Source of the DNA: a candidate division FCPU426 bacterium
GTDB taxonomy: Bacteria > Oederibacteriota > JAAXVQ01 > JAUVAV01
Direction: 5' to 3'
DNA length: 64,000 nt
Assembly: GCA_030591525.1 (NCBI GenBank)
Contig: JAUVAV010000008.1
Location: 15,839 to 79,838, forward strand
The stretch's first letter is position 1; each line of letters opens with the position of its first letter. The notes beneath the pieces were generated by a model, which saw only the letters and a list, made by a program, of their open reading frames with translations, did no database searches and was not told the DNA's origin. Shown here one piece after another: positions 920 to 54,510 of this stretch. A program made the position numbers and the translations under genes.

Positions 920-951
920 TTTATTAGCCGTTCGTTATGGCACCGGCAGTT

Positions 952-979
952 GTAGGGCGTTTAATTAAACGCCCCTACG
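952..979. terminator. Perfect GC-rich palindrome GTAGGG(G)CGTTTAATTAAACGCCCCTAC immediately 3' of bioA. It is a member of a recurring palindrome family.
   Basis: Inverted repeat read directly from the sequence. A nearly identical copy lies at 5649-5677. It sits 33 nt after the bioA stop codon. Confidence 0.5.
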
Positions 980-5648: not shown

Positions 5649-5677
5649 TGTAGGGGCGTTTAATTAAACGCCCCTAC
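5649..5677. terminator. Palindrome GTAGGGGCGTTTAATTAAACGCCCCTAC (family D) downstream of the convergent ABC permease gene
   Basis: A perfect 11-bp stem read directly. It is identical to the copy at 952-979. Confidence 0.5.
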
Positions 5678-5702
5678 AAATGCCGGTGAAGTAAACCCGT
5701 TT

Positions 5703-9939: not shown

Positions 9940-9990
9940 TCATAACCTTTCAACTTCATATTCATAAAAATCCGTGAAATTTATTCTATC

Positions 9991-10164
9991 CAGGAGCCTG
10001 AGCAATTAGTCCAGAATTCAAGTATTCCCCTCCCTTTTTGACGGGAGGGGACAAAGGGGAGGGTGATAAAAGTCTTTAAAAACGCACCCTCACCTAACCT
10101 CTCCCCTCAAGGGAGAGGAATTATTTATATTATATTAAAACCGACTAATTGCTCAAACTCCTAG
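9991..10164. repeat. Family C element with the same terminal inverted repeats (CAGGAGCCTGAGCAATTAGTC ... GACTAATTGCTCAAACTCCTAG) but a different 130-bp core
   Basis: The termini are shared with the other family C copies. The core contains its own inverted repeats (tcccctccc...gggagggg). The 3' sub-motif (gagaggaattatttatat...aaaccgactaa) recurs at 5557-5600. Confidence 0.75.
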
Positions 10165-10424
10165 TGCCGGGGCTTTTTACCCACGTGCCTGATTGCTTTG
10201 GTAAGCGCTACGACTACATCGGCATTAAATTGCTGTGCCATTTCCGCCACCCGGGTATAGGTGTGCCCCTTGTCCGTTACAACATACTTGGCCGGCAGAT
10301 GATTCAAGGCATAGGCTACTATATCCAGGCGGCAACGGCTGCACTTGCAGATACAATTTGTTTTATCCAATAATTCATCCAAAACATTTTGAACCGCGGT
10401 CTCCATATAATTCTTTAATTTCAT
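10161..10424 (-). CDS. comFB: ComFB-like late competence protein family (four-Cys motif)
   Basis: 87 aa. The pattern VxNVLDELL...CxCxxCxxDIxAxALNxLPxxY (CICKCSRCRLDIVAYALNHLPAKY) is characteristic of the ComFB family. Confidence 0.55.
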   Translation of the reverse strand: MKLKNYMETAVQNVLDELLDKTNCICKCSRCRLDIVAYALNHLPAKYVVTDKGHTYTRVAEMAQQFNADVVVALTKAIRHVGKKPRH

Positions 10425-10747
10425 GCTTCCTCCGTCCCCCGGTTTTTTACCATCCCTTAATACATCCCCGCGAATTCCCCGGGAAAATATACGCCTTGCT
10501 CCCTAATCATAGCGGAAATACTTTTCCGGGCCGTATTATATCATATAACTTTATTTTTTTTATAAAAAACATCTTTCCATTTATTTTTTTATCCCTCAAA
10601 TTTTCGCAATAAATTGACTAAAATTCTCTGATTAAATGGAAGATGTGTATGTTTTTTGTAGGGGGCAGGCCCCCTTGTCCTGCCTGTCCTGAGCGTAGCC
10701 GAAGGGTGTGCCTGCGCTGTATTATGTTTTTCGTAGGGGGCCGGCAC

Positions 10748-11122
10748 CTATTCTTTCTTCAGAATTTCTAAAACCTGCTCGCTCAGTTCGTAGGGATCGA
10801 AAGGCTTTATAATATAATCATCCGCACCGACTTTTAAACCCTGCATGGCATCTCCCCTCTGCCCTTTAGCCGTAAGCATAATCACTGGTATATGCCGGGT
10901 CGGGGTGTCGGCCTTGAGTCTTTGGCAGACTTCGAAACCGTTGATATCCGGCATCATAATATCCAGGAGAATAAGATCCGGCTTGGTACCCTGGACCTTA
11001 TCCAGAGCTTCCTGTCCGGAAAAAGCTTCGATAACCTCGAAATTCGCCAGCTCCAACGAAATTTTTACCAGTTTAACAATATCCGGTTCATCATCCACTA
11101 TCATAACTTTGTGTTTTTTCAT
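10748..11122 (-). CDS. Single-domain response regulator (CheY-like receiver)
   Basis: It has the DD...D...T...K receiver signature: VMIVDDEPDIV, LILLDIMMPDINGFEV, MLTAKG, DDYIIKPF. Confidence 0.85.
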   Translation of the reverse strand: MKKHKVMIVDDEPDIVKLVKISLELANFEVIEAFSGQEALDKVQGTKPDLILLDIMMPDINGFEVCQRLKADTPTRHIPVIMLTAKGQRGDAMQGLKVGADDYIIKPFDPYELSEQVLEILKKE

Positions 11123-11132
11123 TTCAACCTCC

Positions 11133-11417
11133 TCAGTTCCTGATCCGGTAATTATGACCTCTACCGCCTAGCGGAACTTCACGTGTCGTGTTGTCCCATA
11201 TCGCCTTGATAATCCGGCCGGAAGATACTCGGGTATCCCGGGCAGGCTCAAAGCAGGGTGAAGCCTCTAAAATCAGATTTTTAATTTCTTCCTTCCCCTG
11301 ACAATATTCCCCGGAAATTTCTTCCAGCATTTTAAAGCGAAAAATGCCTTTGCGCAATAATAAAAGGTTGCGCACCTTATGTTTAGGCTTGCCCGGGGGA
11401 TGACCGGTTCCCGCCAA
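11133..11417 (-). CDS. Hypothetical protein upstream of and co-directional with the receiver gene (start uncertain)
   Basis: The ORF ends 11 nt before the response regulator start. No motif was recognised. Confidence 0.25.
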   Translation of the reverse strand: MAGTGHPPGKPKHKVRNLLLLRKGIFRFKMLEEISGEYCQGKEEIKNLILEASPCFEPARDTRVSSGRIIKAIWDNTTREVPLGGRGHNYRIRN

Positions 11418-11501
11418 GCGGCCCTCCTGGGCTGATTAATTCCGGTTGTGGAAACGACAAATTCAAGCAACCTGAGCCAACCGCCAGGTTTTGAAGTGTC
11501 C

Positions 11502-11636
11502 GTCATTCCGGCATGGTTTTAGCCCTGGACTAAACTATCCCCTGGACTAATTCATCCCGGACAGGCAGGACAGGCCGGAATCCAGCGACTTTATAAGTAA
11601 AATCAGGCCTGGACCCCGGCTTTCGCCGGGGTGACG
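11502..11636. repeat. Family B element (GTCATTCCGGCATGGTTTTAGCCCTGGACTAAAC ... CCTGGACCCCGGCTTTCGCCGGGGTGACG)
   Basis: A near-identical copy lies at 41234-41343 and a shorter relative at 54511-54604. All begin with TGTCATTCCGGCATG and end with an inverted ...GGTGAC(G). Confidence 0.8.
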
Positions 11637-11805
11637 TAATGGGGATGCATTTGCCCGAAATTGCCTTTCCGCAATAGAAACTAATTAAGCTCCGAAAAAA
11701 CATTGCGCAAAATAACTGAATAACTGACCGGCTGTTTTTTTCTTTAAACTCTTCTATTTTTTAGTTTCGGATGAAAAATCAAGGAACTTGAGTCGCGGGG
11801 ATTCA

Positions 11806-25298: not shown

Positions 25299-25967
25299 TC
25301 AGATACTCGTTGGGAGAATGTGCTGTGCTTCGGCCGGATTGATGACTTTGAATTTATTTTCATCCCGGTTAAAAGCATAAATTTCCACCTCTGCAATGTC
25401 AAACCACCAGGCGTGCAGCGACGTCTGCTTTTGCCGCAATGCGGATTGAACTATCTCATACGTTTTTAAATGCTCGAGTTGGAGGAGGACGTTTTTTTGC
25501 GAGATGCGGTCGGAAGGAGACCAGTCTTTGTCATACGTGAGCGGATAATCAAAGGTGTCGAGCGCCGCCTTGGCATGGCCAAGCCAGGATTTCAAATGGG
25601 GAGCGGTGGGCATGGGCGTGTTCTCGCAAATGGCCTGGATGGCGCCGCAATTGGAATGACCGCAGATAATGATATCTTTGACTTTAAGGTATTGGAGAGC
25701 ATATTCCAGCGCTGCAATTTCCGAGTCGTCTGTCTGGGAATAACCCGAGTGATCGCAGCAGGGCGGCACCACATTACCTACATTGCGTATGACAAAGAGA
25801 TCACCCGGATTGGTTGAGGCCAGGAGATTGGGCACCACCCGGCTGTCACTGCAGGTAATGAAAAGCGCATCAGGGTTCTGCTGTTTGGCCAGAGGGTTGA
25901 ATAATAGATCAAAACCAGCCTCGCGCTTAGTGTGGAAATCCAGAATGCCGGCCAGTAATTTCCGCAT
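25299..25967 (-). CDS. Beta-class carbonic anhydrase
   Basis: The zinc ligands CSDSR...HxxCG (CSDSRVVP, GHSNCGAI) are diagnostic for beta-carbonic anhydrases. Confidence 0.8.
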   Translation of the reverse strand: MRKLLAGILDFHTKREAGFDLLFNPLAKQQNPDALFITCSDSRVVPNLLASTNPGDLFVIRNVGNVVPPCCDHSGYSQTDDSEIAALEYALQYLKVKDIIICGHSNCGAIQAICENTPMPTAPHLKSWLGHAKAALDTFDYPLTYDKDWSPSDRISQKNVLLQLEHLKTYEIVQSALRQKQTSLHAWWFDIAEVEIYAFNRDENKFKVINPAEAQHILPTSI

Positions 25968-26795: not shown

Positions 26796-27124
26796 GGATA
26801 TCTCCCCTCCTGCGAATTGCCTTGATTATGGCCCTGAATGACCGCAAAAGTCAAGCCGCGATATTATCGGGCAGGAACAGGTGAGAATTATGGGATGCTT
26901 GCCAGATTAAGTCGCAACTATTGCAGTTAAGTTTACAAAGTTGACACCGTCCCCCATTCCACAAGTTTAATTCTAAAATCAAGATTGGTATGGTTTATTG
27001 TAATTTGACAAGCTGGTGGCAGAAAGGAGGGATAACAGCTTTGGGAATCGCGGGGGCGATATTATAATGGCCTGCGGGAACCGCCGTGAAAATGTAATCG
27101 CTAACCCCGTCCCCTGCTTGGCTT

Positions 27125-28099
27125 TTAAAACCGAAACATGAAGCCGGCGACCATGTACAAGCCGCCCAAATCCACGGTAACCAGCTCTCCATCGCTTAAC
27201 AGCGGCTGGGAAAAACCGGTTGCGCTATTTTCATCCACATACGCCAGATCCACTTCAAGTATCCTTAGACCCATATCCACATTCACTCCAAAGTTCTCTC
27301 CGAACATCAGGTCCAAGCCCCCGGCTATGCCGAATCCGAAACCAGGCGAGGGCGTAAATTCCAGATCATACCAGGGCGAGGTATAATAACCGCTGACCCA
27401 GCCCATCAACATGCTGGGAACCAGCTTGAGCCACAATCCGGTCTCATCTCCCAGCGAGAACCTCACGGGCATATTGACGGAAATGATCTGAGGATCCAGG
27501 ACCACTTCCTGCCGGCCGCCGTAAAAAAGATAACTGCCCCACAAAGAATGGGACGCCGGAAAAATCATATCCAAACCAGTGCCTATCTCAACTCCCGCAT
27601 CTAGCTCAAAATCCAGCTCCAGGCCTGCTTTGAAAAAAGTCGTCGCCCCGGCGTCCACAGCATTATTCGGAATGCCGGTACGTTCGGCAAACCATTGATC
27701 TAATTTGCCCCGGTTGTAAGAATTCATCAGCGTGCCTTGCACATACATGACAAAATGCTGCTCTTTCTTTCCCGCTTGCGGAAAGGCCGGCGGTTTGACC
27801 GGTGCCGGTTGATCCTGTCCCATGGTTCTGTCCGGCTGGGCGCTCGTGGCTGCGCCGGTTTTCAATAATTGCTCGTATTCCAGTTTGGCTTTGCTCTCAG
27901 TGTCAAAGATCTCCTTAATTTGACTGCGCAATATGTTTCGGGCTTTTTGCTCCACAGCCAGCACCAATTTTTCCTCCGTGACTCCCAGTAAATTGCCCTG
28001 TAAAACCACCGCATCGTTTAAAACGACTGTCAATATTTTAGCCTGCAGTGGCATAGCCCATAACAGCATTGCAATTACAATGAATTTTAAGGTGCGCAT
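27125..28099 (-). CDS. Hypothetical outer-membrane beta-barrel protein
   Basis: It has a signal peptide (MRTLKFIVIAMLLWAMPLQA), a C-terminal half rich in alternating Gly and aromatic residues, and a terminal Phe (..GFMFRF). Confidence 0.45.
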   Translation of the reverse strand: MRTLKFIVIAMLLWAMPLQAKILTVVLNDAVVLQGNLLGVTEEKLVLAVEQKARNILRSQIKEIFDTESKAKLEYEQLLKTGAATSAQPDRTMGQDQPAPVKPPAFPQAGKKEQHFVMYVQGTLMNSYNRGKLDQWFAERTGIPNNAVDAGATTFFKAGLELDFELDAGVEIGTGLDMIFPASHSLWGSYLFYGGRQEVVLDPQIISVNMPVRFSLGDETGLWLKLVPSMLMGWVSGYYTSPWYDLEFTPSPGFGFGIAGGLDLMFGENFGVNVDMGLRILEVDLAYVDENSATGFSQPLLSDGELVTVDLGGLYMVAGFMFRF

Positions 28100-28571
28100 T
28101 TTAGCCCTCCTGAATAAAATCTTGATCGGCTTGAGCTGCCGGGAATTAACTTTAACTGAGGTGAGTGGGCCAAAGGAACTTCCTTTATCAATTTATGCAG
28201 CTTATCTGCGGGGCATTAGAAATTTTCTTTTCAAAACAAACTTATCATTCCTGCCAAAAAGCGTCAATTAGTTTATTCCGCACCATCCCCAACCTACTAA
28301 AACCGACTTTCTCCTTTCCGGCTTTTGGTTGTCCTTCGCCGGTTTAAGCTAAGCTTCACGCGTATGGAATATTTTTTTAAGATGGTTCTTTCCTATCCGC
28401 AGGCTGATTCCTCTTCCGGTTAATAAATCATGTCGTCATCCTTCGGATCATCAAAATTCATTGCCCTGCTCCCCAAGTACCTCCTAGTTTAAATTTTAGG
28501 ATTTTTTTCTAGTAATAATAGCATTAAATGCTGTATAGTTTGATCTTTAATTAAAATGGGAGGATATAAAC

Positions 28572-29258: not shown

Positions 29259-29398
29259 GCAAGTCAAAAAATATAGGACATTATGGGAAACATAATGTCC
29301 TATTCTAAACCCGGCAGCTTAAAGAAACTAGACGCTGGTGGGGTGAATATTATTTCAAATAAAGCAGGGTATGCTTAAATTATTACATAACCGTATTA

Positions 29399-30976
29399 CT
29401 ACTTTAAAATGGCTATTTTTTGCATGGGATGGACTGTTACCGCGCCGCTGGTCGTGGTTATCATCCGGCAGAAATAAATGCCCGGCGCGATCCCCTGCAA
29501 AGACCAGACCACAGCTTGGCCTGGATTGTCCTGCTTGACTTCCATCACCTGCTCTCCCAAAACATTGAACACCTTGATTTGTATGGACGTCACCCCAACG
29601 GTTTGCCAGGTGAAGCGGACCTCGTTTTGGGCGGGATTGGGATAGGCCAGGATGACCCGCGTGGATAATGCGCCTAGTACCGTCGGGGTCGGCGTGGGCG
29701 AAACCGTCGTGACTGGCGTGGATGAAACCGCCGGGGTCGGCGTGGACGAAACCGTCGTGACTGGCGTGGATGAAACCGCCGGGGTCGGCGTGGACGAAAC
29801 TGTCGTGACTGGCGTGGACGAAACTGTCGTGACTGGCGTGGGCGAAACCGTCGTGACTGGCGTGGATGAAACCGCCGGGGTCGGCGTGGACGAAACCGTC
29901 GTGACTGGCGTGGATGAAACCGCCGGGGTCGGCGTGGACGAAACCGTCGGAGTCGGCGTGGACGAAACTGTCGTGACTGGCGTGGACGAAACTGTCGTGA
30001 CTGGCGTGGACGAAACCGCCGGGGTCGGCGTATACGGCTTGGTATTGGCCGTGTATATCACCGTGTCCATGACCGTGCCGTCCGCCCGGATATGGCGCAA
30101 GGTGGCTTGGGCGCCGTTTACGCTGATTTCCGTGTATCCATAATAGGCGGGTTGCGCCTCATCGAACGAATAGGCGACCATATAGCCATTGTTGTCGTGA
30201 TTCTCGTCCACGGCGTACAGCGGCGCGCCGCCATTGCCTGTGACGATCTGTGCAGTGCCGGCGAGCGGATCGAGCGGCGGATTCTTGTCCCCGTTAAGGT
30301 CGAGTTTAAGCGTGCGAACGTAATAATGCGCATGCCCGGCAAAAATGACGTCACAGCCGCCTTGATACAGCGGTACGCCCCAGGTGGTGTGGAGGGTGCT
30401 TTCGTACACCTTGGGCCCGAAATCAAAGATCGGTGGATGCCAGATCGCGAACAGCCAGTCCTGCGGATTATTCTGAATGGCCTGCTGAAGCATGGTGTAT
30501 TGCGCACCGGTCAGGGACTCGTAGGGATTCAGAATGATGAAGCGGGCGTTCTCGTAATCAAAAGTAAAAAACGTGCCGTTGTTGCCAAATTGGCTGTTCT
30601 GGCCAGGCAGGTAAGTGTTCCAGTTGGCCAGCCCGGCCGGCACGGTAACTTGATCGTGATTCCCCGGCACGGACATATACTTTGGGGGAACCGCGCTCTG
30701 GCCAGTGCCACCCAGGGTCTCATTACAGGCTTGCTGCCAAATATTCCACTGGGACGCTTGCGTGCCGTCCTCAACCACGTCGCCCACGCTGATGATGAAG
30801 CAGTAGTCGGGCGTGTTGGCCTGGATGGCGTTGAGTACGCTGCGGTGAGCTGTATCGTCCGTGCGCGTGTCCCCGTATACCACGAATTTCCAGGGGGTCG
30901 CGGCCTGGGCTTGTGCGCCTGTTAATATCAGCAGCGCCAGCAGTGCCAGCGCCCTGGGTGTAACTTTCCTACGCAA
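29399..30976 (-). CDS. Secreted calcineurin-like metallophosphoesterase with a Thr/Pro/Val-rich repeat linker and a T9SS-type C-terminal sorting domain (CTD)-like tail
   Basis: It has a signal peptide (MRRKVTPRALALLALLILTGAQAQA) and metallophosphatase motifs (GDTRTDD, GDVVEDG, GNHD, AGHAHYY). The linker is (SSTPVTTV/SSTPTPAV)n. The tail has YPNPAQNEVRF...GIYFC...ILK. The start is TTG at 30976. Confidence 0.7.
   Translation of the reverse strand: MRRKVTPRALALLALLILTGAQAQAATPWKFVVYGDTRTDDTAHRSVLNAIQANTPDYCFIISVGDVVEDGTQASQWNIWQQACNETLGGTGQSAVPPKYMSVPGNHDQVTVPAGLANWNTYLPGQNSQFGNNGTFFTFDYENARFIILNPYESLTGAQYTMLQQAIQNNPQDWLFAIWHPPIFDFGPKVYESTLHTTWGVPLYQGGCDVIFAGHAHYYVRTLKLDLNGDKNPPLDPLAGTAQIVTGNGGAPLYAVDENHDNNGYMVAYSFDEAQPAYYGYTEISVNGAQATLRHIRADGTVMDTVIYTANTKPYTPTPAVSSTPVTTVSSTPVTTVSSTPTPTVSSTPTPAVSSTPVTTVSSTPTPAVSSTPVTTVSPTPVTTVSSTPVTTVSSTPTPAVSSTPVTTVSSTPTPAVSSTPVTTVSPTPTPTVLGALSTRVILAYPNPAQNEVRFTWQTVGVTSIQIKVFNVLGEQVMEVKQDNPGQAVVWSLQGIAPGIYFCRMITTTSGAVTVHPMQKIAILK
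29682..30040. repeat. Tandem ~30-nt periodic repeats (gtggacgaaaccgtcgtgactggc / gtggatgaaaccgccggggtcggc variants) encoding the TP-rich linker
   Basis: Read directly from the sequence. At least 12 units with two alternating variants. Confidence 0.85.
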
Positions 30977-31095
30977 CCTGCACTCCCCCCCCCTTATACT
31001 TGCCGGCTGTCCGGTTCATTGTGATGAATTATACTCCACAGGCGCCCCTGTTACTAGCTTTTTTCCGGCTGCAGGGTGATTTGGGTTTGACGACT

Positions 31096-31167
31096 GAAAA
31101 TCATTATAAAGCGGTTCATATGCAATATCCGGGGCAACAGGTTCTGGCGAGGCACGCGTTCTATTCC
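31096..31167. repeat. Left copy of a 72-bp direct repeat bounding a ~3.5 kb island
   Basis: The sequence GAAATCATTATAAAGCGGTTCATATGCAATATCCGGGGCAACAGGTTCTGGCGAGG(C/T)ACGCGTTCTATTCC is identical, apart from one mismatch, to 34562-34632. Confidence 0.85.
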
Positions 31168-31300
31168 AGAACAGAATCAGTCCAGAGATTAAATTACTCC
31201 ACCCCAAGGGCGGAGAATTTGATCCGAGATGTAGAAAGTCATTATTTTTATAGCCGCTTCATCCCCGCCTTGAACATGCATATCAATAATAATCTTCATC

Positions 31301-32013
31301 TCATGTCACGAAGTCAAGGCGGGGAATTCGCGGTGACGTATTAAGATGCCTAAGTATCTTTTCTACGATTTCGCTGTCATCCAGCAAAGCTATTATTTTC
31401 ATCTCTCCACCACAAGCGGGAGAGATGAGAGGATCAACCTCCCAGATTTTTTTGATCAATTCCCGCCATTGCTTTGACGGCACTTGCGGTGCTTGGTATG
31501 CCGATATGTCTATTAAATTTTTGAGCATTTGAGCAGGTGATCAGTTGACCGCAGCTTTTCTACTGCTCTCCTGATCAACTGTTCGGCTGCTCTGATTTTC
31601 GCAAAGCGAAAATCAGGTATGTGCTGCGTTATCGCTCCTATGAATTCCCCTGCAGTAAATACTTTGAAGTTTCCTTTGACCTTGGGTTTTGGTTTGGAGC
31701 AGTATATCACACTTCCTGTCTTTTCATTATAAATCATCTTTTCTTCTGAAAATGGATTTCGAATTATATACTGTGCCAATCGTTCCAGGCCTGACCTTTC
31801 TTCCCTTTTGACCGGTTCTCCCTTATGCACACTGAAGCCGCTATGTTGCCAGGCACGCAGTTTCCTGGCTAAATCTTCTATCGGTCTCAAATAGCCATGG
31901 CTTTTTTCATACTTCTCTTTATAATGCTTAAGGTAATCGGCAAAGTGAGCATGCAAACATTGCCACAACTTTGTTCTTTTAGGCTGGCGGGGTTTATAGA
32001 CTTTTTCTTCCAT
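31301..32013 (-). pseudogene. Degraded IS91/ISCR-family (HUH Y2 rolling-circle) transposase, C-terminal portion only, frameshifted
   Basis: Two frames carry the fragments. Frame A (31513-32013) has LAQYIIRNPFSEEKMIY. Frame B (31301-31528) has the characteristic C-terminal zinc ribbon ..ISPACGGEMKIIALL.DSEIVEKILRHL. No HUH N-terminal domain was found upstream. Confidence 0.5.
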
Positions 32014-32374
32014 GTCTTTTTAGACATGGGATTCAGCTTTTTCTTGCTGAAAATATTACCAAACACTGAAGTTGTATGCATCGTGCCAAGACGGTCGGCC
32101 ATTACGATTCATGGCGGCCACTTTTTCTTAAGATAAGAGGTCAGAAAGATTTGCCGGGCGCTTAAGCTGAAATTCGGGGATTTCATTCAGGAATTCAAGC
32201 GGGAATTAAAATAAGTTAATTTGTTATTTTAGCTAATGGACTTCACCCAGAATTACATCAATTACGCAATCAGGGACAGGAGCCGTTTGGTTTCTTTTGT
32301 ATCGTGGATCACGAGCGGGACCGCCCCCTGAAGCCTTGAAGCTTTTTTATTGTTGAAAGAGACACGAGGGATCA

Positions 32375-33199
32375 ATGATCGACCAACTATGCGTCCAATT
32401 CTTGAAATGGTGTTTACCGAATCTGCGCCTGAAATGGTCAGGGTTCCAAAAAGTCCGAAGGCATGTCTGCAAGCGGATTTACTCTCGCTGTCACGAAATT
32501 GGCATTTCCACGCTTTTGGAGTATCAAAAATATCTTGAAAACCATGGCCAAGAGTGGGAAATTCTTGACACCCTCTGCCGAATTACCATCTCCCGTTTCT
32601 ACCGCGATCGTCAAGTGTTCGAGACCTTGCGTAACCAGGCGCTGCCCCTCCTCATTCAAAAAGCCGTCGCCGGAGGAGAACAAGCACTTTATGGCTGGAG
32701 TCTCGGATGTTGTAATGGTGAAGAGGCTTATTCCCTGCAGATCCTCTGGCAGCTGGGAATTAAGCCGAACTTTCCAGAAGATTTACGGCTTCGACTGATA
32801 GCTACCGATGTGAATGCACATTTGCTGGAACGCGCTTCCCAAGGCTGTTATGTTCAAAGCAGCCTGAAGGACCTTCCACCAGAATGGATTGACCAGGCTT
32901 TTGAACAAACCGGGAGGCAGTATTGCATCAAGGAAAGTTACAAAGAGAATCTTCAATTTGTAAAGCAGGATATTCGGCACCAACTGCCTGAAGGCCGGTT
33001 TCATCTTATCCTTTGTCGCAATCTGGTTTTTACCTATTTTGAAAAAAGCCTCCAACTGGCAATACTGGCCAAATTGGTAGAAAAGCTTATCCCCGGAGGT
33101 TTTTTAGTGATTGGAAGTCATGAGAAACTGCCTGGAGGAAGCCCTGATCTACAATCTTCCCCGGCGATGCCAAGTATTTATCAAAAAACGATTATCTAA
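32375..33199 (+). CDS. CheR-type SAM-dependent methyltransferase (protein-glutamate O-methyltransferase-like), orphan
   Basis: The CheR N-terminal helical domain (ISRFYRD) and a class I MTase core (YGWSLGCCNGEEAYSL, IATDVNAHLLERA) are present. There are no neighbouring chemotaxis genes. Confidence 0.65.
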   Translation: MIDQLCVQFLKWCLPNLRLKWSGFQKVRRHVCKRIYSRCHEIGISTLLEYQKYLENHGQEWEILDTLCRITISRFYRDRQVFETLRNQALPLLIQKAVAGGEQALYGWSLGCCNGEEAYSLQILWQLGIKPNFPEDLRLRLIATDVNAHLLERASQGCYVQSSLKDLPPEWIDQAFEQTGRQYCIKESYKENLQFVKQDIRHQLPEGRFHLILCRNLVFTYFEKSLQLAILAKLVEKLIPGGFLVIGSHEKLPGGSPDLQSSPAMPSIYQKTII

Positions 33200-33330
33200 G
33201 AATGCTTCGAAACCACCCGGCGCGCTAGGGAAACCTGCCCCTGCTTCTGAATTAATGCCGCAAAACAGCCAGCGAACCAAGACCCGTTTTTTAGATTGAA
33301 ATTTATATAAGGGTTCCAATTTGAATGATC

Positions 33331-34062
33331 CTACTTCGGGACCGGAGGCTTTCTCTGGGACAGGTTCAGGATTTTATTCTTTAATTCACGATTAATTGGG
33401 AAACCCAGAATATTAACCACTGGCCATCTCACATCTTGACTCTCGTTCCCCGCATAGACGATCCCGGCCAGACGATAAGATCCATCCTTCCCAATGCGAA
33501 AAATCGGGCTTCCGCTCAAGCCCCCTAAATTCCATCTTTTCTCCCGGGGGTTTAAACGAGATTCCAGCCAGATTTTCCGATCCGAAAAAAGCCGACACGT
33601 GGCCCAGAGATGTTTCGCCTTTGACGGAGATCTCTTATTCCCTGGGAACCCCACCACCAAGACTTCTTCGTCCTCTTGGATTCGGGGGCTGTCTTCTTCG
33701 AGCTGATAGAAATTCTTGCCCCCGCTGAGAATCACATCTCTATCCAGCCCAAAGACAGCGATGTCAAACGGAAGATCAAAATCTTTGCGTTGGGAGGAAA
33801 AGATGAGGCGACCGGGAAGCGGGCGAGGTCTTGGCAGGGCCAGTGTGAAGAGGAGTTGTTGGGAATTCCAGCGATATTTTTCAGCAACCACATGTTGGTT
33901 GGTGATGCCCAAGCAGCGGCCCTTCCATTCCACAAAAGTCAAGGTGGCGTTGGTCAGTCGGGACTTCGGGCCGGCTTCAAGCTTGCTTATCCTCAGTTCG
34001 GCACAAAACTTAGCCGTTGCCGAAGAAAGCTTGGTTTCAAAACGCGCATCCTGGTTTAACAT
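33331..34062 (-). CDS. Cytoplasmic trypsin/chymotrypsin-fold serine peptidase (no signal peptide)
   Basis: A His-Asp-Ser triad is in the usual context (GITNQHVV ... DIAVFGLD ... GLSGSPIF). The protein is 243 aa and convergent with the CheR-like gene inside the island. Confidence 0.55.
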   Translation of the reverse strand: MLNQDARFETKLSSATAKFCAELRISKLEAGPKSRLTNATLTFVEWKGRCLGITNQHVVAEKYRWNSQQLLFTLALPRPRPLPGRLIFSSQRKDFDLPFDIAVFGLDRDVILSGGKNFYQLEEDSPRIQEDEEVLVVGFPGNKRSPSKAKHLWATCRLFSDRKIWLESRLNPREKRWNLGGLSGSPIFRIGKDGSYRLAGIVYAGNESQDVRWPVVNILGFPINRELKNKILNLSQRKPPVPK

Positions 34063-34561
34063 CTTTCGACCCCGACGTTAAGATAAAGTTGAAGCGAGAG
34101 CTAGAGAAATTTGGGCTTTCTACCTCGATCGCTTCATTCCTCTGACGATCAACTGCGGGTTTGCAAAAAAAGAAAGCCAATCTGCGGTTTAGAGGAACAA
34201 TTGTTTAGTCGGGTTTAATATCGCGGCCTTTCACCGAAGATCAAAGGGATACGAATAAAATGATGGCAGAGAAATTTATTCTAATCCCCGGAAGAAGATG
34301 CCTTAGGTTTAATTCGTTCTGCTCTCAGCTGATAAGAATTTACTTTTGAAGGATAGTGTAACAAAGGCTGAAATAGTACGTCAACGGCAAAATTTCGGGC
34401 TGAGGATGTTATACTCAGACTGGTAAAAACTCTAATCTCGTGTTGGGCAAAGATTTTCCAGCGGCTTTTCTACAATTTCCGGTAAAAATGGCCTTTCTGA
34501 TAGACTGTTGAGACAGTTCTTTCCTATTCCCCCTAGCTACCGATTCTTCCGGATCTAACTG

Positions 34562-34632
34562 GAAATCATTATAAAGCGGTTCATATGCAATATCCGGGGC
34601 AACAGGTTCTGGCGAGGTACGCGTTCTATTCC
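34562..34632. repeat. Right copy of the 72-bp direct repeat. It overlaps the last two codons and the stop of phoR.
   Basis: See 31096-31167. Sequence identity stops exactly at the phoR stop codon. Confidence 0.85.
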
Positions 34633-36398
34633 GGCAGCTTAATCGTAAAAACACTGCCTTGGCCCGGAGCGCTCTCTACGGATACGGAACCGCCGTGCGC
34701 CTGCGCGATATGCTTGACAATGGCCAGGCCTAAACCAGTTCCGCCCAGCTCGCGGCTGCGGGCCCTGTCGACCCGGTAAAAACGCTCAAAAATCCGGACG
34801 AGGTGCTGGCTCTCGATTCCGCATCCCTGGTCGCGAACGCGCACTATTACTTCTCTTTCTCCGCGCTCCGCCTCCACGGTTATTACTTTGCCCGGCTCGC
34901 TGTATTTGACGGCATTATCAATTAAATTGATAAGTGCCTGCTCCAGGAGAGGTATATTGGCTTGCGTGCCAAGGTCTTCCGGGCAGTCAATCTTAATTTC
35001 ATGCTTTTGGCTTGCCGTCCGGGCTTCGTAAAGCAGGATGACCGATTTTAGAACATCCTTTATCTTACAGCTTTCCAGGCGAATCTCTTTTTTTTCAGCT
35101 TCCTGTTCAATCCGCGAGAGATTTAAAAGATCTTCAATAATGGCATTTAGCCGCTCAGCGTATTTTAAGATTATTTCCAGGAATCGTCGGCTCTCCTGGG
35201 GCTTGTTTATGGCCCCGTCCAGCAGAGTTTCCACAAAACCCTGGATACCGGTAATCGGCGTTTTAAGTTCATGGGAAACATTGGCCACAAAATCCCGGCG
35301 CATTCTTTCCAAACGGCGCAGACGGGTAATATCATTTAATACTATCAGCGCGCCTATGCCTTTTCCCTGCTCATCCCGCAGAGTAGTGCCGTGAACATGC
35401 ATGATGCATTCGGTGTTATATTTATAAAGAACGATCTCGTCTTCCAGCACAGTTTGCGAGGCCAGGGTTTTGGTCACAAAACGCTGGAGATCAGTATTCC
35501 GCACAACTTCCTGGAGGCTCCGCCCTCTGACCCGGCCGGTCTGGATCCCGAACATATCCGCGGCCGCGCTGTTTATATTGAGAAGGCATTCATCAGCATC
35601 CACTGCCAGAACACCCTCCACCATGCTGGACAAAACCGCTTCCTGCTCATGACGCTGCCGCAGTATGGTCCGGATGCGCTCATCCAGCTGGCCGGCCATC
35701 TGGTTTAAAGTCTCGGCCAGTCCGCCGATCTCCTCTGAATTGGGGATGGGTAATTTATGGTCCAAATCCCCCCTGGCAAAACGTTCTGCACCATTTTTCA
35801 TTTCCCTTAAGGGGCGGCTGATTTGATAGGAAACCGCCAGGCTGACAGCCGCTGCCAATAAGGCAATCAACAGTCCTGCCAGAGCCAGCTTCAGATAAAT
35901 TCCTTTTAGTGACTGCCGGATAGAGGTTATGGGGATTGCCAGCCGGATAACCGCCGGTATGCTATTGCCGCGGATATGGGGAATAGCAAGATACATCATG
36001 TCTTTCCGCAAGGTATGGCTGAACCGGTTGGATATTCCCACCTGGCCGTCCAGGGCTGCCATGACCTCGGGCCGGTCAGCGTGATTATCCATGCGAACGG
36101 GATCCTCTTGGGAGTCGCCCATGACCTTTCCGGATGGAAGGATTATTGTGAGGCGGGCGCCCACGGTTTGGCTTAATTCCCGGCAGAGCCGGTTAACCGC
36201 AGCACTGTCTCCGGCAGATATGATTCCCTGCATCTCTCTTTCTATCAAGCCGGCTTGAGATTTAAGATGCTGCCTGATTTCCGTTAAATATAATTGGCGC
36301 AGAAAGCCGGCGGCAATCCAGCTGACTGCCAGGAGAGACATAAGTATAATCAGCAGGTAGGATGGATAAAGCTGCCAGAGGAGACGTTTTTTTCGCAT
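34626..36398 (-). CDS. phoR: Phosphate-regulon sensor histidine kinase (TM-HAMP-PAS-HisKA-HATPase)
   Basis: It has an H-box (FVANVSHELKTP), and N, G1 and G2 boxes (DNAVKYS, DQGCGI, GGTGLGLAI). It is the last gene of the pst-phoU-phoB-phoR array. Confidence 0.85.
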   Translation of the reverse strand: MRKKRLLWQLYPSYLLIILMSLLAVSWIAAGFLRQLYLTEIRQHLKSQAGLIEREMQGIISAGDSAAVNRLCRELSQTVGARLTIILPSGKVMGDSQEDPVRMDNHADRPEVMAALDGQVGISNRFSHTLRKDMMYLAIPHIRGNSIPAVIRLAIPITSIRQSLKGIYLKLALAGLLIALLAAAVSLAVSYQISRPLREMKNGAERFARGDLDHKLPIPNSEEIGGLAETLNQMAGQLDERIRTILRQRHEQEAVLSSMVEGVLAVDADECLLNINSAAADMFGIQTGRVRGRSLQEVVRNTDLQRFVTKTLASQTVLEDEIVLYKYNTECIMHVHGTTLRDEQGKGIGALIVLNDITRLRRLERMRRDFVANVSHELKTPITGIQGFVETLLDGAINKPQESRRFLEIILKYAERLNAIIEDLLNLSRIEQEAEKKEIRLESCKIKDVLKSVILLYEARTASQKHEIKIDCPEDLGTQANIPLLEQALINLIDNAVKYSEPGKVITVEAERGEREVIVRVRDQGCGIESQHLVRIFERFYRVDRARSRELGGTGLGLAIVKHIAQAHGGSVSVESAPGQGSVFTIKLPE

Positions 36399-45684: not shown

Positions 45685-45822
45685 CCAGGAGCTTGAGCAT
45701 TTAGTCTGCTTTTTGAGAGTAGATAGTAGAAAGTAGACCGCATTTGAGATATTTTATCTAATTTCTACTATCGAATCTCAAATGCTCTGAAGCCTGAGTA
45801 ACTAGTTGCTCAGGCTTCTAGG
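45685..45822. repeat. Family C miniature inverted-repeat element (canonical copy). Its right terminal inverted repeat overlaps the stop codon of the giant gene.
   Basis: The sequence is CCAGGAGCTTGAGCATTTAGTC-...AGTAGATAGTAGAAAGTAGACCGCATTTGAGATATTTTATCTAATTTCTACTATCGAATCTCAAATGCTC...-GAGCCTGAGTAACTAGTTGCTCAGGCTTCTAGG. Confidence 0.85.
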
Positions 45823-48800
45823 CCGCGCCGGCGTATGACAAAGACATTTCCCGGATACGACGAGGCGGACGTAACTGCTGCCCATTGGAGTGAAAGATTT
45901 CGTCGTCGTACAAGGTCATCAACTGTTCCTTGAGAAGATCGTCTTTCAAAAGCCGGGCGGGTATTACGCGCTTGATCAAACCTGCCTGGCCGGCGCGAAA
46001 TTGAAGGACTTGCTGGTTGGCCGGGTCAATATGCCGGAAGATCAGTAAAATATGGTCGCGATATGCCAGATCACCCGCCAGCTTGGCACGCCGCATTTCT
46101 TTCATAAGATGGTGCATGATGGATGTGAGAATCTCGCCGTTTTGCGGCGAGTTATCCAACCGGTGCAGGGTACGCATCAGCCAGGCGTCCTGGTTCAAGC
46201 AGCGTTCCCGGATCCGGCGGGAAATAACCGATTTATCATGCAGTTCGGGATCTGCGGCCAGGACTTCTTGTAAGTAACGGCCGGGCGCCAGGTAAAAAGC
46301 GGTTCCATTGATTTTATTCGCATGGTAAATGATCATCTTCAAATGATGATCGATTTCATCAGCTTGAGTATGGGTTATCCGCAGTATCCATAGGAAAACA
46401 GGCGAACGATTCATCAATTTCCGGCCGTCGTGCCATTGCTTTTTTATATGGTCATTCTCCGGAACCGCGTGCCAGGCGCGGCCGTTAACCACTTTTAAGA
46501 TGTCTTTTATGGCTTTCCAAAAAGCCGGCTGCCGCATAAGAAGAATAACCAACAGGATTCCGGGAAGCTTGCGTTGGGAAACGCCAAGCTTCAGGTGCAG
46601 GGAATGTTGTCCGGCCTTTTTAAGCGCCCGGGATCCCATCACCAGTGCCAAGACGAAAAGCACCAGCCGTGATACTTTTTTGCGGGCGGCTATGGCGGTA
46701 TCAGCGCCGGTTTCCTCTCCCGGCAGGCGAATTCCTTCTTTTTCAAGGCCGGAGAATCCGGCAGACCGTCCCGCCACGCCGGCCGCCGCGCTTCGGAAAT
46801 CCGCAAAGGGTGCCTGCAGCGCTTCTTCAGAAATTACCGGTACCGGGCCTTGGCGGAAAACAGCTATACGATAAAGATCATCGCGGTAATGTGTCCGCCG
46901 GATGGCTTCCGCTTCATCCTTTGAAAAGTCCAACCGCCCGGAACTCTGTTCCTCCCGGACGCGCTGTTCAAAGGCGGCCTGCGCGGCTTGATTATCCGCC
47001 AAACCGGCTGCCGCCTCTCCCACCGAGGCGTGCATATCGGATGCCAGACTTTGCTTTTTTGCCCACCAGGCCAGGCGGTCCAGATCTACACCGTCTTTCC
47101 ACCCGTGGGCTCCAGGGCAATAATTAATAAACATGATACTGCCGGCCTTCAATTTGCGGGAAGCTTGCGTCATAACTTGGTAAGGAGTAAACCAGCAGAC
47201 TGCCACGCCGTCCTGGGCCTTACGGGCTTGGGCCTGCAAAATCTTCCGGCGTTCTTTGAAATAAGCGTTCAGCCCGGGTATGCCATCTAACTCAACCTCC
47301 CGGTTATCCGCCGCAATAAACCGAACCTTACCGGCACTGTTCATTTCTATCCGGACTGTGTTTTGATATTGCCCGCTCAGGATAATCATGCCTTTGAAAG
47401 CAGCCATGCTCTCCAGAGCGGCCGGCGTTTGCTCTCCCGCGGGAATATTAACCAGGCGCATATTCTTTAAAAAATCCCGATAGGTTTGCGCCGCCCCGGG
47501 ACGGATTTCCATGCGCTGGTTGAAGTAAGCTGTAATATCTTCCTGCAAACCGTCAATGTCCGTAACCAAGGTATATTTGCCCTTAAATTTCGCCGGGCCG
47601 CCTAATTGTTTCCACTGCCGGAAGGCGTACTCGGCAATCGCCGGACCCTGCCCCCGGTGCAGAATCCGCTGGTATGCGCTGTAGCCGGCTTGCAATCGTT
47701 CTTCCGCCTCCTGACTTGCCAGAGAATCAGGCTCCGGGTAAAACGTATCTGCCCGGGCTGCCAGGAAACCCAAATGTACCAGCCCCGCAGACACGCCGTT
47801 GCCAATAACCCGGCCTCCCAGCCAGCCGGCCGCAGCGCTCCAGACGGCCGCCAATCCGGTTAAGATCCACTCTTTCCGGCGGAAGCGTTTGAACCCGGAT
47901 CCAATCAAGGATAAGAATAGGCGCTGGTCCGGCTGAATTGGTTCCAGCATAAACCGCAACTTTTGGCCCAGAGGGCTGGTTTTAAAACGGAGCCAGGGCC
48001 GGATCAGAAAGAAACGCTGCCATTGGCCGGACCCCGGGGGTTGAGGTTTGATATTAAGCTCACGGTGGCGTTCCATAAGATTTATCAAAGACGCAGATTC
48101 TTCCTGCCTGAGCTGCTGCGCCATAGTCCCCGGAGACTTCCGGCTCCACTTCTGAAGCCAATCATCAGCCAGTCTTCCGGCGATCCCGCGAAACCTCTCA
48201 CGCGCTGCTTCCAGCTGGCCGGAATCGTAGACAGCATACGGTTCCGGCCAGGGATGAGCCAGCCGGGTGATTCCCGCCTTCTGGATTAAACGGCTGAATC
48301 CTTCCTCTTTGGTCAAGTCCTTGCTAGGGCAGTTGCTGGAGACCGCGGAAAGAGTAATCGGAACTTTGGAATAGCGGTTAATACGTTCCTTCAGAGTCTG
48401 CAGAAACAGAGGCGCCGCCTGGTTTAAATTCCGGACAACCAGCAAGCGTCCCAACTGCTCCTCCTCAATATGCATAAGCAGCGCGGGCAGCACCCAAGGA
48501 TGACAGGAATTTATTTCGGGCGCTTCTATTTTATATTCAATATCCAAAAGATGTGTGATTTCCGGGCAAACCACAACGATTCGGATTTTTTCCTTGTCAT
48601 AGACATGCCGGGGAGGCGCCCGGCTGATGAAAACCGCGGGTTCAAATTTTTTCAGCCGGCCTAAAAAGCTCAGTCGTTCAATAACTAACCGCTCCAAGCC
48701 GAAAAAACTCAACACCCAGGGGGCCGCTTTTTCATAAAGCAGATAGCCATCGGCATTTTTAACCTCAGAATTAATCGCATAGCGTTTTTGCAGAGCCCTG

Positions 48801-51800
48801 ATTTTTTTTAAATAATGAAAACTGAAAAGATTTTTACCTCCTCCGGAAAGTCTGTGCGGCATGGCTATAGGCTTTAATTTGCCCTGGTCTATCACAACTT
48901 TTTTATGTTGGTTCGCCTGGGCCCGGCACAGAAAATAACGGGCCCGGAATAAGCTGGCCTCGACCCACTCGGCCATTTCCCGGGAAGTAATCTGTTGTTC
49001 TCTTTGCTTCCGATTTAATTCCCGGCGTCTTGGTTCGGAATACACCAAGGAGGCCTTGGTAACTCCAAAAATGATTTCCGGAACAGGGAGAAATTCGCCG
49101 CATCCGGCCGGTGAACTTATCGGTTTTTCCGGGCCGGGTTGACTTATGGCCTGAAGCGTAATCGGCTCCAACTTCAGACCCAGGCTCTGTTCGGTCACCT
49201 GGTGCAGCAACCGGCCCGGCCGGGGACGCCATGCCCTATTTTGCAGGATATTTGCTTTTTCGGACCAAGGTAAGCTTTCAAGATAATTCTGGACTAAGTC
49301 GTGCCGATTGACGCGCAACAAAAGACGTACGCCGTGGAGCTCATCCTGCAACACCCTGACCAACTGATCGTCTCCCATGGTTTTACAAAGCCGGGCGGCG
49401 GCTTCTTCTACCTGTTGCAAAGTCATGGTTTTCTCCCAATCGCTTGCCGGGCGTACCAGGACGTACTTCTCCTCAAATTCCTGAGCCAGGATGCTTCGGA
49501 CATGCTGCAGAGCTGCGCTCACGCTATCGGCTGATAAGGTATGATCCATTAAAAAGGCCGCCCGTCCGTGAATGCCAAAACGCTCAATTTCCTGAAAACC
49601 TCTCCGGCCGTTCAGCCGGCGCATGAACTCCGTGTTTAGTATCCGGTGGATGTGGTCTGAAATATCCTGTTCGAGCATGCAGGCCACATCTTTCCCATAG
49701 ACTTGCTTGATGCTGAGGATATTCTCCAGTCCGGCCAGACCGATCCAGGCATCGCCTTTTTTCTGCAGGATACCGCGAAAGCGCGCGGTTTTTGTCTCTG
49801 GTTTCTTCCGAAGCAGAGCTTGATTAACCAACTTGATCGCTTCCGGAACTGGCAGGTACCGCATATCCAACAGTATGGCATCCGGATGAGGGTGAGCCGC
49901 TTCCTTGGGATTATGGTCGATTACATAAAATCGCGCGGCTTTTTCCGCCTGGTTCTCGAATAATCTAAATGATGGCGTCCGGCGGTGTCCCACTACAATG
50001 AGATTTTTTTCCTGGGCGGCATGATCCACCAAGCATTGATCTACCTGACCGCTGAAATGATCGCGGAGCATATCTTCTGTAAAAATCCGCTTTACCATAG
50101 CCTTGACTTCCGGCTGCATGATTTCTTCCATTTCCGGCTGATCGTGATGCGGTTTTCCGTTCGCGCCTTCATATTCTACCAGCATGCTGTTTTCACCTGT
50201 TCGGGAATTGAATTGAGGCGTGATATTTATTCGGGAGATGGTTTTTTGTATGCCGATCAGCCGGGCCGGAGTAAGCGGTGACCGGCCATCCAGACCTTTC
50301 TGCCGCTGTACGTCCAGCACTTTCCAGGCCAAGGCCCGGCGCATGAATTCCACGTTAACATAACTGTACCCATATTGGCGTGCCATCAGGGCCGCCAGTT
50401 GGTGCTTATGAAAAGTTCCCGGTCCGTCCAGGGTTATAATATGGCGTATTTGTTTATGGGAATAATTATAGGCACCCCAGATGGCCGTTAATCCGGCGGC
50501 GGCCGCTATCAACCAAGCCGCAGGCAAGCTCAAAATTATGCCTGAGACGCCGGCCCCCAGCCCTATGGCTCCCAGCACGAGCATACGGAGCGCGTCTCTC
50601 TGCCTCGGGTGCAAAAAGCCGCTCCAAATTCGATGAAATATGCGCGCCAGGGAAAGATACTCCAAAAAGGTAGCCGTATAATAGCTGCGGCCGACCTGGA
50701 TATCCAATAAATATTTGAGTACCGCCATTTGGCCATCGTGGGTTAATTTAAGCAAATTGGGATTCAACAAAATCTTGCCATCATCCCCAATATCGCCTAT
50801 GGTCCCAAAAGTCTGACCCCATTTTAGTTTCTCCGACGGCAGAACGCCGAAATGCGGCTTTTCCGGATACATCCCCGGATGCCGGGCCTGCAGTCCCGTA
50901 AAGAGCGGGGCCATGAACTCTACGATGTTTTCATTGGTTAAGCGGACCGCGTTCTTTTTTCTTTCTCTGAGTAAGGGTAACCTGTCCAGGCCGGGAATGC
51001 GGTTCAAGCTGGAATTCAGATAGGCGAATAAAAAACAGAAATAGTAATACATGCGAGGCCCGGAATTGAAAAACATATAGCCGCCGGATCCCAGGGACCA
51101 ACTGGTTGCAAATGTAAGGGATACCTGAGGCACAAAGAGCATGCCGAGCATTATTATAATAACCAAGGGAAAGAACAGCTTGACCATGCCGGTGCCATAG
51201 GCCTGTACCACGGCCTTGTGAAAAAGCGGGGGCGCGGTTTCACTCTTCCACGCAACCAAATATTTGTAGGTACCTTTGGTTAACTCGTAGACCAGTTTAA
51301 TCAGCACATGAACGGGAGACAAGGACAGATTACAGGGTCCTGACCACATGGCATCGGTAACCGACATGTCCAGCTTGGTGTGGGGATTGACTTTACGGAT
51401 AGCGTAAAAGTTTAGGGCCGCCATGCCTGCCACAAAAACCGCTGCCACCAAAATCCCGAGCGTAGGAAGTGCTGGGGATAACAAGGCCAGGATGAGACTT
51501 AAATACATGATGGTAAATATCCATCCGTAAGATTCGCTGATATGGCCTTTCCGGACCAAAGCTGCGGGATAAAACCAGGGCTCCAGGAGATGGGATAATC
51601 CTGCCGAAATGAAAATATTCCAAATATAATAACCCGGCGGTGGGCGCTGCAATTTTTCCTCAGCCTCTTGGGCTGCGGTCCGGTATGCCGCCAGACTGCG
51701 GTACTTGAAAAAACGGCTAATCGCAGGCCGGCGCAACAGCCCGTCGATCGCCTGATTAATAAAATAATGAGCATAAAGCTGGTAGGCCACGACAAAGAAC

Positions 51801-54223: not shown

Positions 54224-54510
54224 CAGGCCTCTCTTTGCTTTTTTAAAATATGCTCCTGTATTTTTTTGCAAACGCGGTAATAGAGAAATCCCATCACGCC
54301 TATGCAAAGTAAAACTATCAACCCTAAAACAATTTCCATTTTTCTATTCTCCTGTTTTTATTCAGATTAATTATAGCTTCTGTTGGTTAAGAAAATATTT
54401 CGGAAATGTGTTTTTTGTGTGAATATTTATCAGATGCTTTAGAGAGATCGCTGGAGAAAATACTAAATTGCACTAGTGTCGTGTTTCATAAGTACGTTGA
54501 ATTAATGTTT

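Follow-up and report, generated by a model that had tools for sequence, protein, structure and literature searches.

How did a 3.5-kb island, bounded by two copies of a long direct repeat, come to stand at the very end of a phoR gene, and do the two cargo genes inside it work together? The locus lies in a stretch of 64,000 nucleotides (nt) from a candidate division FCPU426 bacterium (contig JAUVAV010000008.1, positions 15,839 to 79,838), which is called the window here and whose own positions are used throughout. The island carries a relic of an IS91-family transposase gene, a gene for a CheR-like methyltransferase, and a gene for a chymotrypsin-fold serine protease. By alignment with related contigs, it is evidently the inner layer of a two-layer, strain-specific 5.3-kb insertion in the last phoR codons. 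The feature belongs to known kinds: a transposition unit of IS91 type that has decayed, and an integration hotspot that contains it.

Alleles at the 3' end of phoR

The phoR gene heads a complete pst-phoU-phoB-phoR locus. In related contigs of approximately 92.5% nucleotide identity, the whole pho locus was kept in the same gene order, and their homology to the window ended at 34628-34631, at the phoR stop codon. In three of these contigs, i.e., L019, L020, and L024, an empty allele was found, which consists of phoR, then a hairpin terminator, and then a convergent peroxiredoxin gene. The features of the window that enter this comparison are the following.

29273-29303, minus strand: old phoR terminator, a hairpin with a T-run (terminator scan, 13 pairs), aligned with the sequence directly after phoR in L019, L020, and L024
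29297-29323, minus strand: relic of the old phoR 3' end, TTTAAGCTGCCGGGTTTAGAATAGGAC, collinear with the single copy in the same three contigs
29399-30976, minus strand: secreted calcineurin-like or purple-acid-type phosphoesterase with a sorting tail of the type IX secretion system (T9SS), from Pfam (Metallophos) and NCBIfam matches
31093-31167, no strand assigned: direct repeat copy 1, 116 nt upstream of the phosphoesterase start codon
34558-34632, no strand assigned: direct repeat copy 2, from which phoR takes its last sense codon and its stop codon
34626-36398, minus strand: phoR-type histidine kinase gene, whose product scores as PhoR/PnpS-like and ends in KLPE before the stop codon

The old terminator now lies behind the phosphoesterase gene and adjoins the peroxiredoxin gene. 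Because the old phoR end and its terminator are stranded at 29273-29323, 5,320 bp, including the phosphoesterase gene, must have been inserted relative to the empty allele. The 12-mer TTAAGCTGCCGG, which encodes the last phoR codons, occurred exactly twice in the window (29311-29322 and 34631-34642) and once in each relative, and no shuffle gave two matches. The C-terminus of PhoR reads KLPE in the window versus KLPGL or KLPGLE in the relatives, and the incoming DNA evidently gave phoR a new last codon and a new stop codon.

In the initial annotation, the island was taken to interrupt a phosphoesterase gene and a pho locus that are otherwise contiguous. The insert at the phoR 3' end with its bounding repeats is real, but the contiguity found no support in the relatives, in which phoR, the terminator, and the peroxiredoxin gene follow one another. 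The phosphoesterase gene is absent behind phoR there and belongs to the outer 5.3-kb insertion. The empty site that had been anticipated does exist; however, its order is phoR-terminator-peroxiredoxin and not phosphoesterase-repeat-phoR. The closest homologues of the phosphoesterase were encoded on L025, a metagenome-assembled genome of candidate division FCPU426, and on L026, and neither of them is near phoR. The GC content was 45.3% in the island and 58.7% in the phosphoesterase gene, with 49.6% for the window.

A third allele was found in L013-L016. Here a ParE-toxin gene, an N-terminal relic of an IS91 transposase gene, and HEAT-repeat and Amidase_6 genes are present, and the insert starts within about 12 nt of the same point. 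The phoR 3' end is thus, as read from the aligned contigs, evidently a variable hotspot with at least three alleles. In L013 (12500-13100), L015, and L016, the ParE-toxin gene directly follows phoR, with a short unannotated open reading frame (ORF) before it. The N-terminal part of the transposase in this allele, about 70 codons of the same IS91-like gene, is fused to a membrane-like ORF.

Further differences among the strains were seen near the hotspot. Part of a carbonic-anhydrase gene (25342-25800) has no counterpart in the L019/L020 allele, and the same applies to a 1.6-kb stretch (26863-28457), in which an ORF of 324 aa (27125-28099) belongs to no known family. L020 instead carries crcB and DUF190 genes near the hotspot. 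Within the phosphoesterase gene, at least 13 head-to-tail copies of a 24-nt unit were observed at 29631-30079. These units encode a linker rich in Thr, Pro, Val, and Ser (TPVTTVSS/TPTPAVSS) between the catalytic domain and the T9SS sorting tail, and the similarity of the homologues ends before this repeat region.

The direct repeat and the IS91-family element

The two copies of the direct repeat are 75 nt long, differ by two mismatches (31097 A/G and 31153 C/T), and are spaced 3465 bp from start to start. They share a perfect core of 55 nt, i.e., 31098-31152 and 34563-34617, which had 0 matches in 100 shuffles. The repeat-bounded 3.5-kb island described earlier was confirmed, whereas the repeat given for it, of 72 bp and one mismatch, was a slightly trimmed version of the present one. 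The identity had also been said to end exactly at the phoR TAG. This is not so, as copy 2 runs 7 nt into the phoR ORF: the TAG itself (34626-34628), the GAA codon before it, and a single base more.

No third copy of the core was found within the 64-kb window, and a 22-mer from it gave no match in genome, metagenome, or viral contig collections. The repeat folded no better than its shuffles on either strand (z +0.8 and +1.2). An identity as an integron attC site was ruled out because the repeat has no hairpin structure; it has no GTTRRRY core either, and no integrase is encoded in the island.

Direct repeats at both ends, one of which rebuilds the end of the target gene, together with the 12-nt outer repeat of the phoR end, bring site-specific integration to mind. 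The island and the phosphoesterase module would be unrelated cargo of one family of integrative elements with a common 75-bp arm, and a recombinase whose gene lies elsewhere would have inserted them in tandem at an att site at the 3' end of phoR. In favour of this, the same 75 nt open each module on its phoR side, the 12-nt duplication surrounds the whole insert, and the gene end was replaced as in islands that target gene 3' ends. The third allele also fits, as its different insert starts at most about 12 nt away from this point. However, no recombinase ORF or domain was detected in 29324-34632 by ORF and domain scans, so that the 5.3 kb lack a recombinase gene. The far ends of the two modules were not alike by inspection, and the left flank of copy 1 showed no resemblance to the phoR end (p 0.92). 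Moreover, the repeat was found nowhere else in the window or in the genome, metagenome, and viral collections, the L013-type insert does not start with it, and it has no attC-type structure. Successive integration of this kind is considered decidedly unlikely. Rfam and tRNA scans of the window found nothing, and therefore the island is not one that targets a tRNA gene. Neither the island nor the protease had a DNA or protein match in plasmid and phage collections.

The two copies could also owe their presence on one contig to the assembly. Two strain alleles would then have been joined across the shared 55-75 nt, and the repeats would never have stood on one chromosome. The contig is derived from a metagenome, and the alleles are polymorphic in the population, as the variant contig L002 illustrates. 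The sole independent contig, L001, covers repeat 2 and ends 195 nt before repeat 1. However, L001 confirmed the junction of island, repeat 2, and phoR at 99.97% identity. The copies differ at two positions and therefore are not one collapsed node. For a chimera, the island branch would likewise have to end in these 75 nt, and a second copy would then be real in any case. An artefact is accordingly regarded as very improbable.

From the phoR-distal repeat inward, the following parts of an insertion sequence (IS) were recognized.

31168-31300, minus strand: non-coding stretch downstream of the transposase relic, where the oriIS side is expected (putative assignment; hairpin at 31197-31215, fold z-score -2.9)
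31301-32013, minus strand: IS91-family (HUH-Y2) transposase relic, with ORF pieces at 31513-32013 and 31301-31528 (Pfam Y2_Tnp and NCBIfam IS91)
32010-32033, minus strand: probable terIS end, a perfect 8-bp palindrome CCATGTCT-TTTT-AGACATGG (palindrome at 32010-32029, fold z-score -6.4)

The transposase relic matched Y2_Tnp above the cut-off (E 3.6e-12). It keeps codons 1-45. A 537-nt in-frame deletion (179 codons) follows at 31877/31878, which took out the Zn ribbon and the HUH motif, and beyond it, the C-terminal part of Y2_Tnp leads into a frameshift (near 31597) and stop codons. The YY region is lost as well. The initial annotation was right to recognize a frameshifted relic of an IS91- or ISCR-type (IS common region) transposase, but not in taking it for a C-terminal portion only, as the first codons are kept and about 179 internal codons are gone. 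The closest longer homologue, P0197, carries Zn_Tnp_IS91 and Y2_Tnp domains and is encoded on L028/L029. It is 78-89% identical to the relic, and its DNA is 93% and 85% identical to the two relic parts. L002, a contig from another run, was 100% identical to the window over 31878-33641 (1,764 nt), and left of 31878 it continues as normal transposase sequence, LRPIVLEVVKKYLECGDLSK. Since L002 is without the 537-nt deletion, the deletion is recent and polymorphic, and the element was less decayed very recently.

In the IS91 family, terIS is a subterminal palindrome adjoining the cleavage site, and the target tetranucleotide GTTC/CTTG abuts oriIS (PMC13181058). The palindrome of the window overlaps the transposase start codon, and DNA homology with the independent copy in L028/L029 stops 4-5 nt beyond it. 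The oriIS end of the family has one or more palindromes downstream of tnpA. At the other side of the element in the window, repeat copy 1 is separated by 1 nt from a GTTC (31169-31172, read as the reverse complement), a 4-nt match that stands between the ori side and the repeat. The transposase relic and the palindrome evidently represent a recently decayed IS91-family element with an end recognizable as a probable terIS. The cargo genes lie outside the IS proper, on the terIS (5') side of the transposase gene. One-ended rolling-circle transposition takes up DNA on this side. The earlier suggestion that an ISCR-like element captured neighbouring genes is compatible with this placement; the capture of a working module is not borne out, as described in the next section.

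Some debris related to the element was noticed elsewhere. At 10456-10481, in a 1.9-kb stretch without long ORFs (9940-11805), 26 nt match the 3' end of the transposase relic (31320-31345) at 92%, and no second transposase relic was found in this stretch by tblastn with full-length transposases. In L028, a second partial copy of the same transposase gene lies just upstream of the first (2585-2881 vs. 3048-3344, 70% identical). The start of L028 holds an rve-type integrase fragment, and this contig is a nest of IS debris.

For the origin of the island, a two-layer hotspot insertion is proposed with slightly more confidence than doubt. Its inner 3,465-bp unit would be a dead IS91 rolling-circle element with DNA of its terIS side, brought in by a circle that recombined over 75 bp. 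Along the unit stand the ori-side hairpin, the gutted transposase gene, and the terIS palindrome, which would be followed by the picked-up CheR-like gene, protease gene, and promoter piece. Replication would have started from the ori end and run through a missed terIS and the neighbouring genes, i.e., one-ended transposition. It would have terminated near the phoR end of a sister allele, which would give a circle including the 75-bp sequence that lay behind phoR. Campbell-style recombination of this circle with the same 75 bp in a chromosome of the order phoR-75 bp-phosphoesterase would then leave one copy at each side, and the element would have decayed afterwards. Recombination of a circle over the 75 bp is the simplest account with the parts at hand and would reproduce the gene order, the junction of the ori side with repeat 1, and the untouched phoR end. 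As for the 75-bp repeat itself, its most likely source is such a circular copy of the IS91 transposition unit, which may have recombined across 75 bp already present behind phoR.

Several observations weigh against this proposal. The recipient allele that it postulates, phoR-repeat-phosphoesterase, was not found among the relatives, in part because the collection had no exact entry for the phosphoesterase protein with any of seven alternative starts, nor for the small ORFs over the repeats. The donor allele, i.e., the unit alone, was not found either. The repeat, besides being without a match in the genome, metagenome, and viral collections, was absent behind phoR in all relatives seen. The junction at repeat 1 is known from this single assembly. 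The GTTC at the ori side is only 4 nt long and could be a matter of chance. No intact IS copy with its 3' end was recovered to fix oriIS, as L028 stops short and a transposase scan of the metagenome contigs was empty. Finally, a second lineage also has relics of this IS family at the hotspot, but beside other genes. The IS may thus have resided there for long, and the cargo genes may have arrived later instead of being captured by it.

The same parts could have been joined without homologous recombination. In this case, the transposase would have re-inserted an IS91 unit that was formed by one-ended transposition and bore the 75 bp at its far end. Its target would have been a GTTC-type site at the end of phoR, on a chromosome with a 75-bp copy of its own. 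The GTTC directly between the ori side and repeat copy 1 and the cargo on the terIS side agree with such an event. IS801 and IS1294 use GTTC as the target as well as for cleavage at terIS, and target duplications are not made in this family (PMC13181058). Because termination and targeting share this tetranucleotide in these elements, both events at the same spot would be explained. However, the present phoR end reads CCGG|AATAG and contains no GTTC, and the similarity of GTTCTGGAATAGAAC to the relic GTTTAGAATAGGAC was not significant (p about 0.16). The donor and recipient alleles that are missing for the recombining circle are missing here too. Re-insertion by the transposase is considered unlikely, and recombination of a circle over the 75 bp is preferred as the origin of the inner unit.

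The methyltransferase and protease genes

The cargo of the inner unit comprises two convergent genes, 131 nt apart. The protease gene shares the strand of phoR, and no terminator was predicted in between. The features of this part are the following.

32375-33199, plus strand: orphan CheR-family methyltransferase dependent on S-adenosylmethionine (SAM), 274 aa, full length (PF01739, E 5e-38)
33331-34062, minus strand: signal-less chymotrypsin-fold serine protease, 243 aa, triad H57, D100, and S183
33162-34206, minus strand: 1,046-bp segment common to L003-L006 (98.5% identity), with the protease gene (33331-34062), 144 nt upstream, and 169 nt downstream
34327-34406, minus strand: 80-nt promoter-like piece, TTGACG-18-TACACT, pointing at the protease gene and 92.5% identical to the region upstream of a DUF4386 gene in L003

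The CheR-like protein scored 130.8 bits against PF01739 (cut-off 27) and 66.6 bits against the NCBIfam CheR model (cut-off 435). It aligned with the solved structures 5FTW, 5XLY, and 1AF7 over residues 28-266, with the start at residue 28-34, and both the helical N-domain and the SAM domain are present. Its C-terminus fits the family consensus. Its homologues number more than 2500, span many phyla at lengths of about 272-276 aa, and are 49-56% identical, and the clade of stand-alone CheR-like proteins has five invariant cysteines. CheR proteins work with chemoreceptors and with CheA, CheW, and CheB. None of the 27 ORFs that were scanned in the interval 14982-57159 is a chemotaxis gene, i.e., one for a methyl-accepting chemotaxis protein (MCP), CheA, CheW, or CheB, in keeping with the earlier description of an orphan CheR-type methyltransferase. 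The neighbours of the homologues were a Na/H antiporter and a thioesterase gene, Peptidase_M54 and nitroreductase genes, and an enolase-superfamily gene with URO-D. A literature search for characterized orphan CheR-like proteins found nothing relevant.

The protease was matched to Trypsin_2 with an E-value of 8e-5 and a score of 23.9, which is below the Pfam cut-off of 27.6. H57, D100, and S183 were invariant in 33 sequences, with the serine in a GxSGG context. An AlphaFold2 model was obtained with a pLDDT (predicted local distance difference test) of 86.7 and a pTM (predicted template modelling score) of 0.87. Foldseek placed it with probability 1.00 next to HtrA1, M. tuberculosis HtrA, and SplA, i.e., chymotrypsin folds of the HtrA, Spl, and 3C type, with identities of 13-20% to solved structures. 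A viral fold library returned only generic 3C/trypsin-like matches, and a search of the protein against viral contigs found nothing. The N-terminus was modelled as a helix, and no hydrophobic stretch resembling a signal peptide was seen. The signal-less serine protease of chymotrypsin fold in the initial annotation was hence correctly recognized. Its family is a rare one: 1.84 billion representatives yielded 64 clusters at 50% identity. At residue 185, the window has Ser, whereas 90% or more of the family, the 98%-identical copy of L003 among them, have Gly (GG-M/L-S-G-G-P); beside the catalytic Ser, this exchange may impair the enzyme slightly.

The protease gene is evidently recently exchanged with another genome, judging from the segment that the window has in common with L003-L006, which belong to GCA_023139615.1 and three other assemblies. 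The coding sequences differ by seven synonymous and five non-synonymous changes. In L003, the segment sits between that genome's own hairpins, which resemble repetitive extragenic palindromic (REP) elements, beside a NosD-like gene. These hairpins lie outside the shared segment and occur neither in the window nor at any of the loci of its relatives. The hairpin family, GGGACACC(A/G)TACTTAATT ... AATTAAGTATGGTGTCCC, was located at 2139-2191, 5765-5806, and 6868-6920 of L003, also in L004-L006, and it flanks the protease segment. A perfect palindrome, GTAGGGGCGTTTAATTAAACGCCCCTAC, occurs between genes of the window (943-979 and 5650-5686) and in L003 (14523-14560) as a shared REP- or terminator-like element, and it hints that the two genomes may not be wholly unrelated.

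Do the two genes form a unit? The initial annotation had raised a modification or effector module. In its full form, the CheR-like methyltransferase and the protease would be a two-gene module of defence or toxin type, captured as a unit by an ISCR-like element. The close convergent arrangement speaks for it. The final 38 nt of the CheR gene, which encode the family-typical end PSIYQK, fall in the downstream part of the shared segment. This relic beside a lone protease gene shows that the two genes were already convergent neighbours in the source of that copy, and the neighbourhood is older than that transfer. PADLOC gave weak, domain-level matches of the protease to defence effectors, i.e., LmuA (3.8e-8) and RT-Protease_XI (1.4e-3).

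However, the pair did not recur. The two genes were neighbours in 0 of 3 contexts of CheR homologues (six or more contigs) and in 0 of 1 context of a distinct protease homologue, which is a small sample. That closest distinct protease homologue lies behind a DUF2784 gene with no CheR nearby. In L003-L006, the protease gene is intact and stands without CheR, save for the 38-nt relic. No LmuB/SMC or reverse-transcriptase partner was found in the island, L003, or L022. The families also differ in size, with more than 2500 CheR members versus 64 protease clusters, and therefore they cannot be obligate partners. A captured module is thus highly doubtful, and the module of the initial annotation was not supported by these four contexts.

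A related reading would be that the CheR-like methyltransferase and the S1 protease once were a functional pair. The methyltransferase might then have modified or licensed the protease or its target, as an effector of toxin or defence type, and the lone copy would be a broken half. The sole positive sign for it is the 38-nt CheR relic, and this is a faint chance at best. The two genes look like independent, unrelated passengers and not a working pair. The island as a whole is evidently a mosaic, whose cargo parts have different histories.

Outside the island, a 2,829-aa ORF was observed upstream of the phosphate porin gene (45818-54307). It is conserved in the relatives, where it measures about 2,760-2,806 aa, and no Pfam hit is on record.

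Likeness to known systems and meaning

The inner unit resembles IS91/ISCR elements, i.e., IS91, IS801, IS1294, and ISCR1-type elements, in its Y2_Tnp homology, in passenger genes on the terIS side, and in the lack of a short target duplication. Its two unlike ends may be of the same kind too, as a putative terIS palindrome lies at the 5' end where homology to the other copy stops, and a hairpin and GTTC lie on the presumed 3' (ori) side. Unlike these elements, the unit has a dead transposase, a putative terIS palindrome that extends over the start codon, and cargo genes other than resistance genes. The unit is also bounded by a 75-bp direct repeat, which is not made by the family itself and is far too long for a transposition duplication. 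In addition, the host differs from the known ones, as it is an uncultured lineage of the Fibrobacteres-Chlorobi-Bacteroidetes (FCB) type.

The locus as a whole is similar to 3'-end integration hotspots and islets. Strain-varying gene sets lie between two core genes, the gene end is rebuilt, the old end persists as a relic, and direct repeats flank the insert. It differs from them by the lack of an integrase, by a repeat situated for the most part behind the gene instead of in a tRNA or coding core, and by the nesting of its repeats, i.e., 12 nt outside and 75 nt inside.

Both cargo proteins have known folds. The methyltransferase shares the helical N-domain and the SAM-binding domain with CheR (1AF7, 5FTW, and 5XLY), but it stands alone, without MCP, CheA, CheW, or CheB among the ORFs scanned, and its homologues lie beside unrelated housekeeping genes. 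The protease shares the double beta-barrel and the His-Asp-Ser triad with HtrA, Spl, and 3C-like proteases and with the LmuA protease and the retron RT-protease of type XI. Unlike HtrA and the defence-system proteases, it is a stand-alone protein of 243 aa without a signal peptide, a PDZ domain, or an SMC-like or reverse-transcriptase partner.

The significance of the locus is modest, and it opens no long-standing question. It provides a clean worked example of the layered filling of a variable spot between the phoR and peroxiredoxin core genes in an uncultured FCB-type lineage. A rolling-circle element of IS91 type was probably the vehicle, and the old gene end remains as a datable scar. In addition, a rare gene for a stand-alone cytoplasmic serine protease has recently been transferred between genomes.

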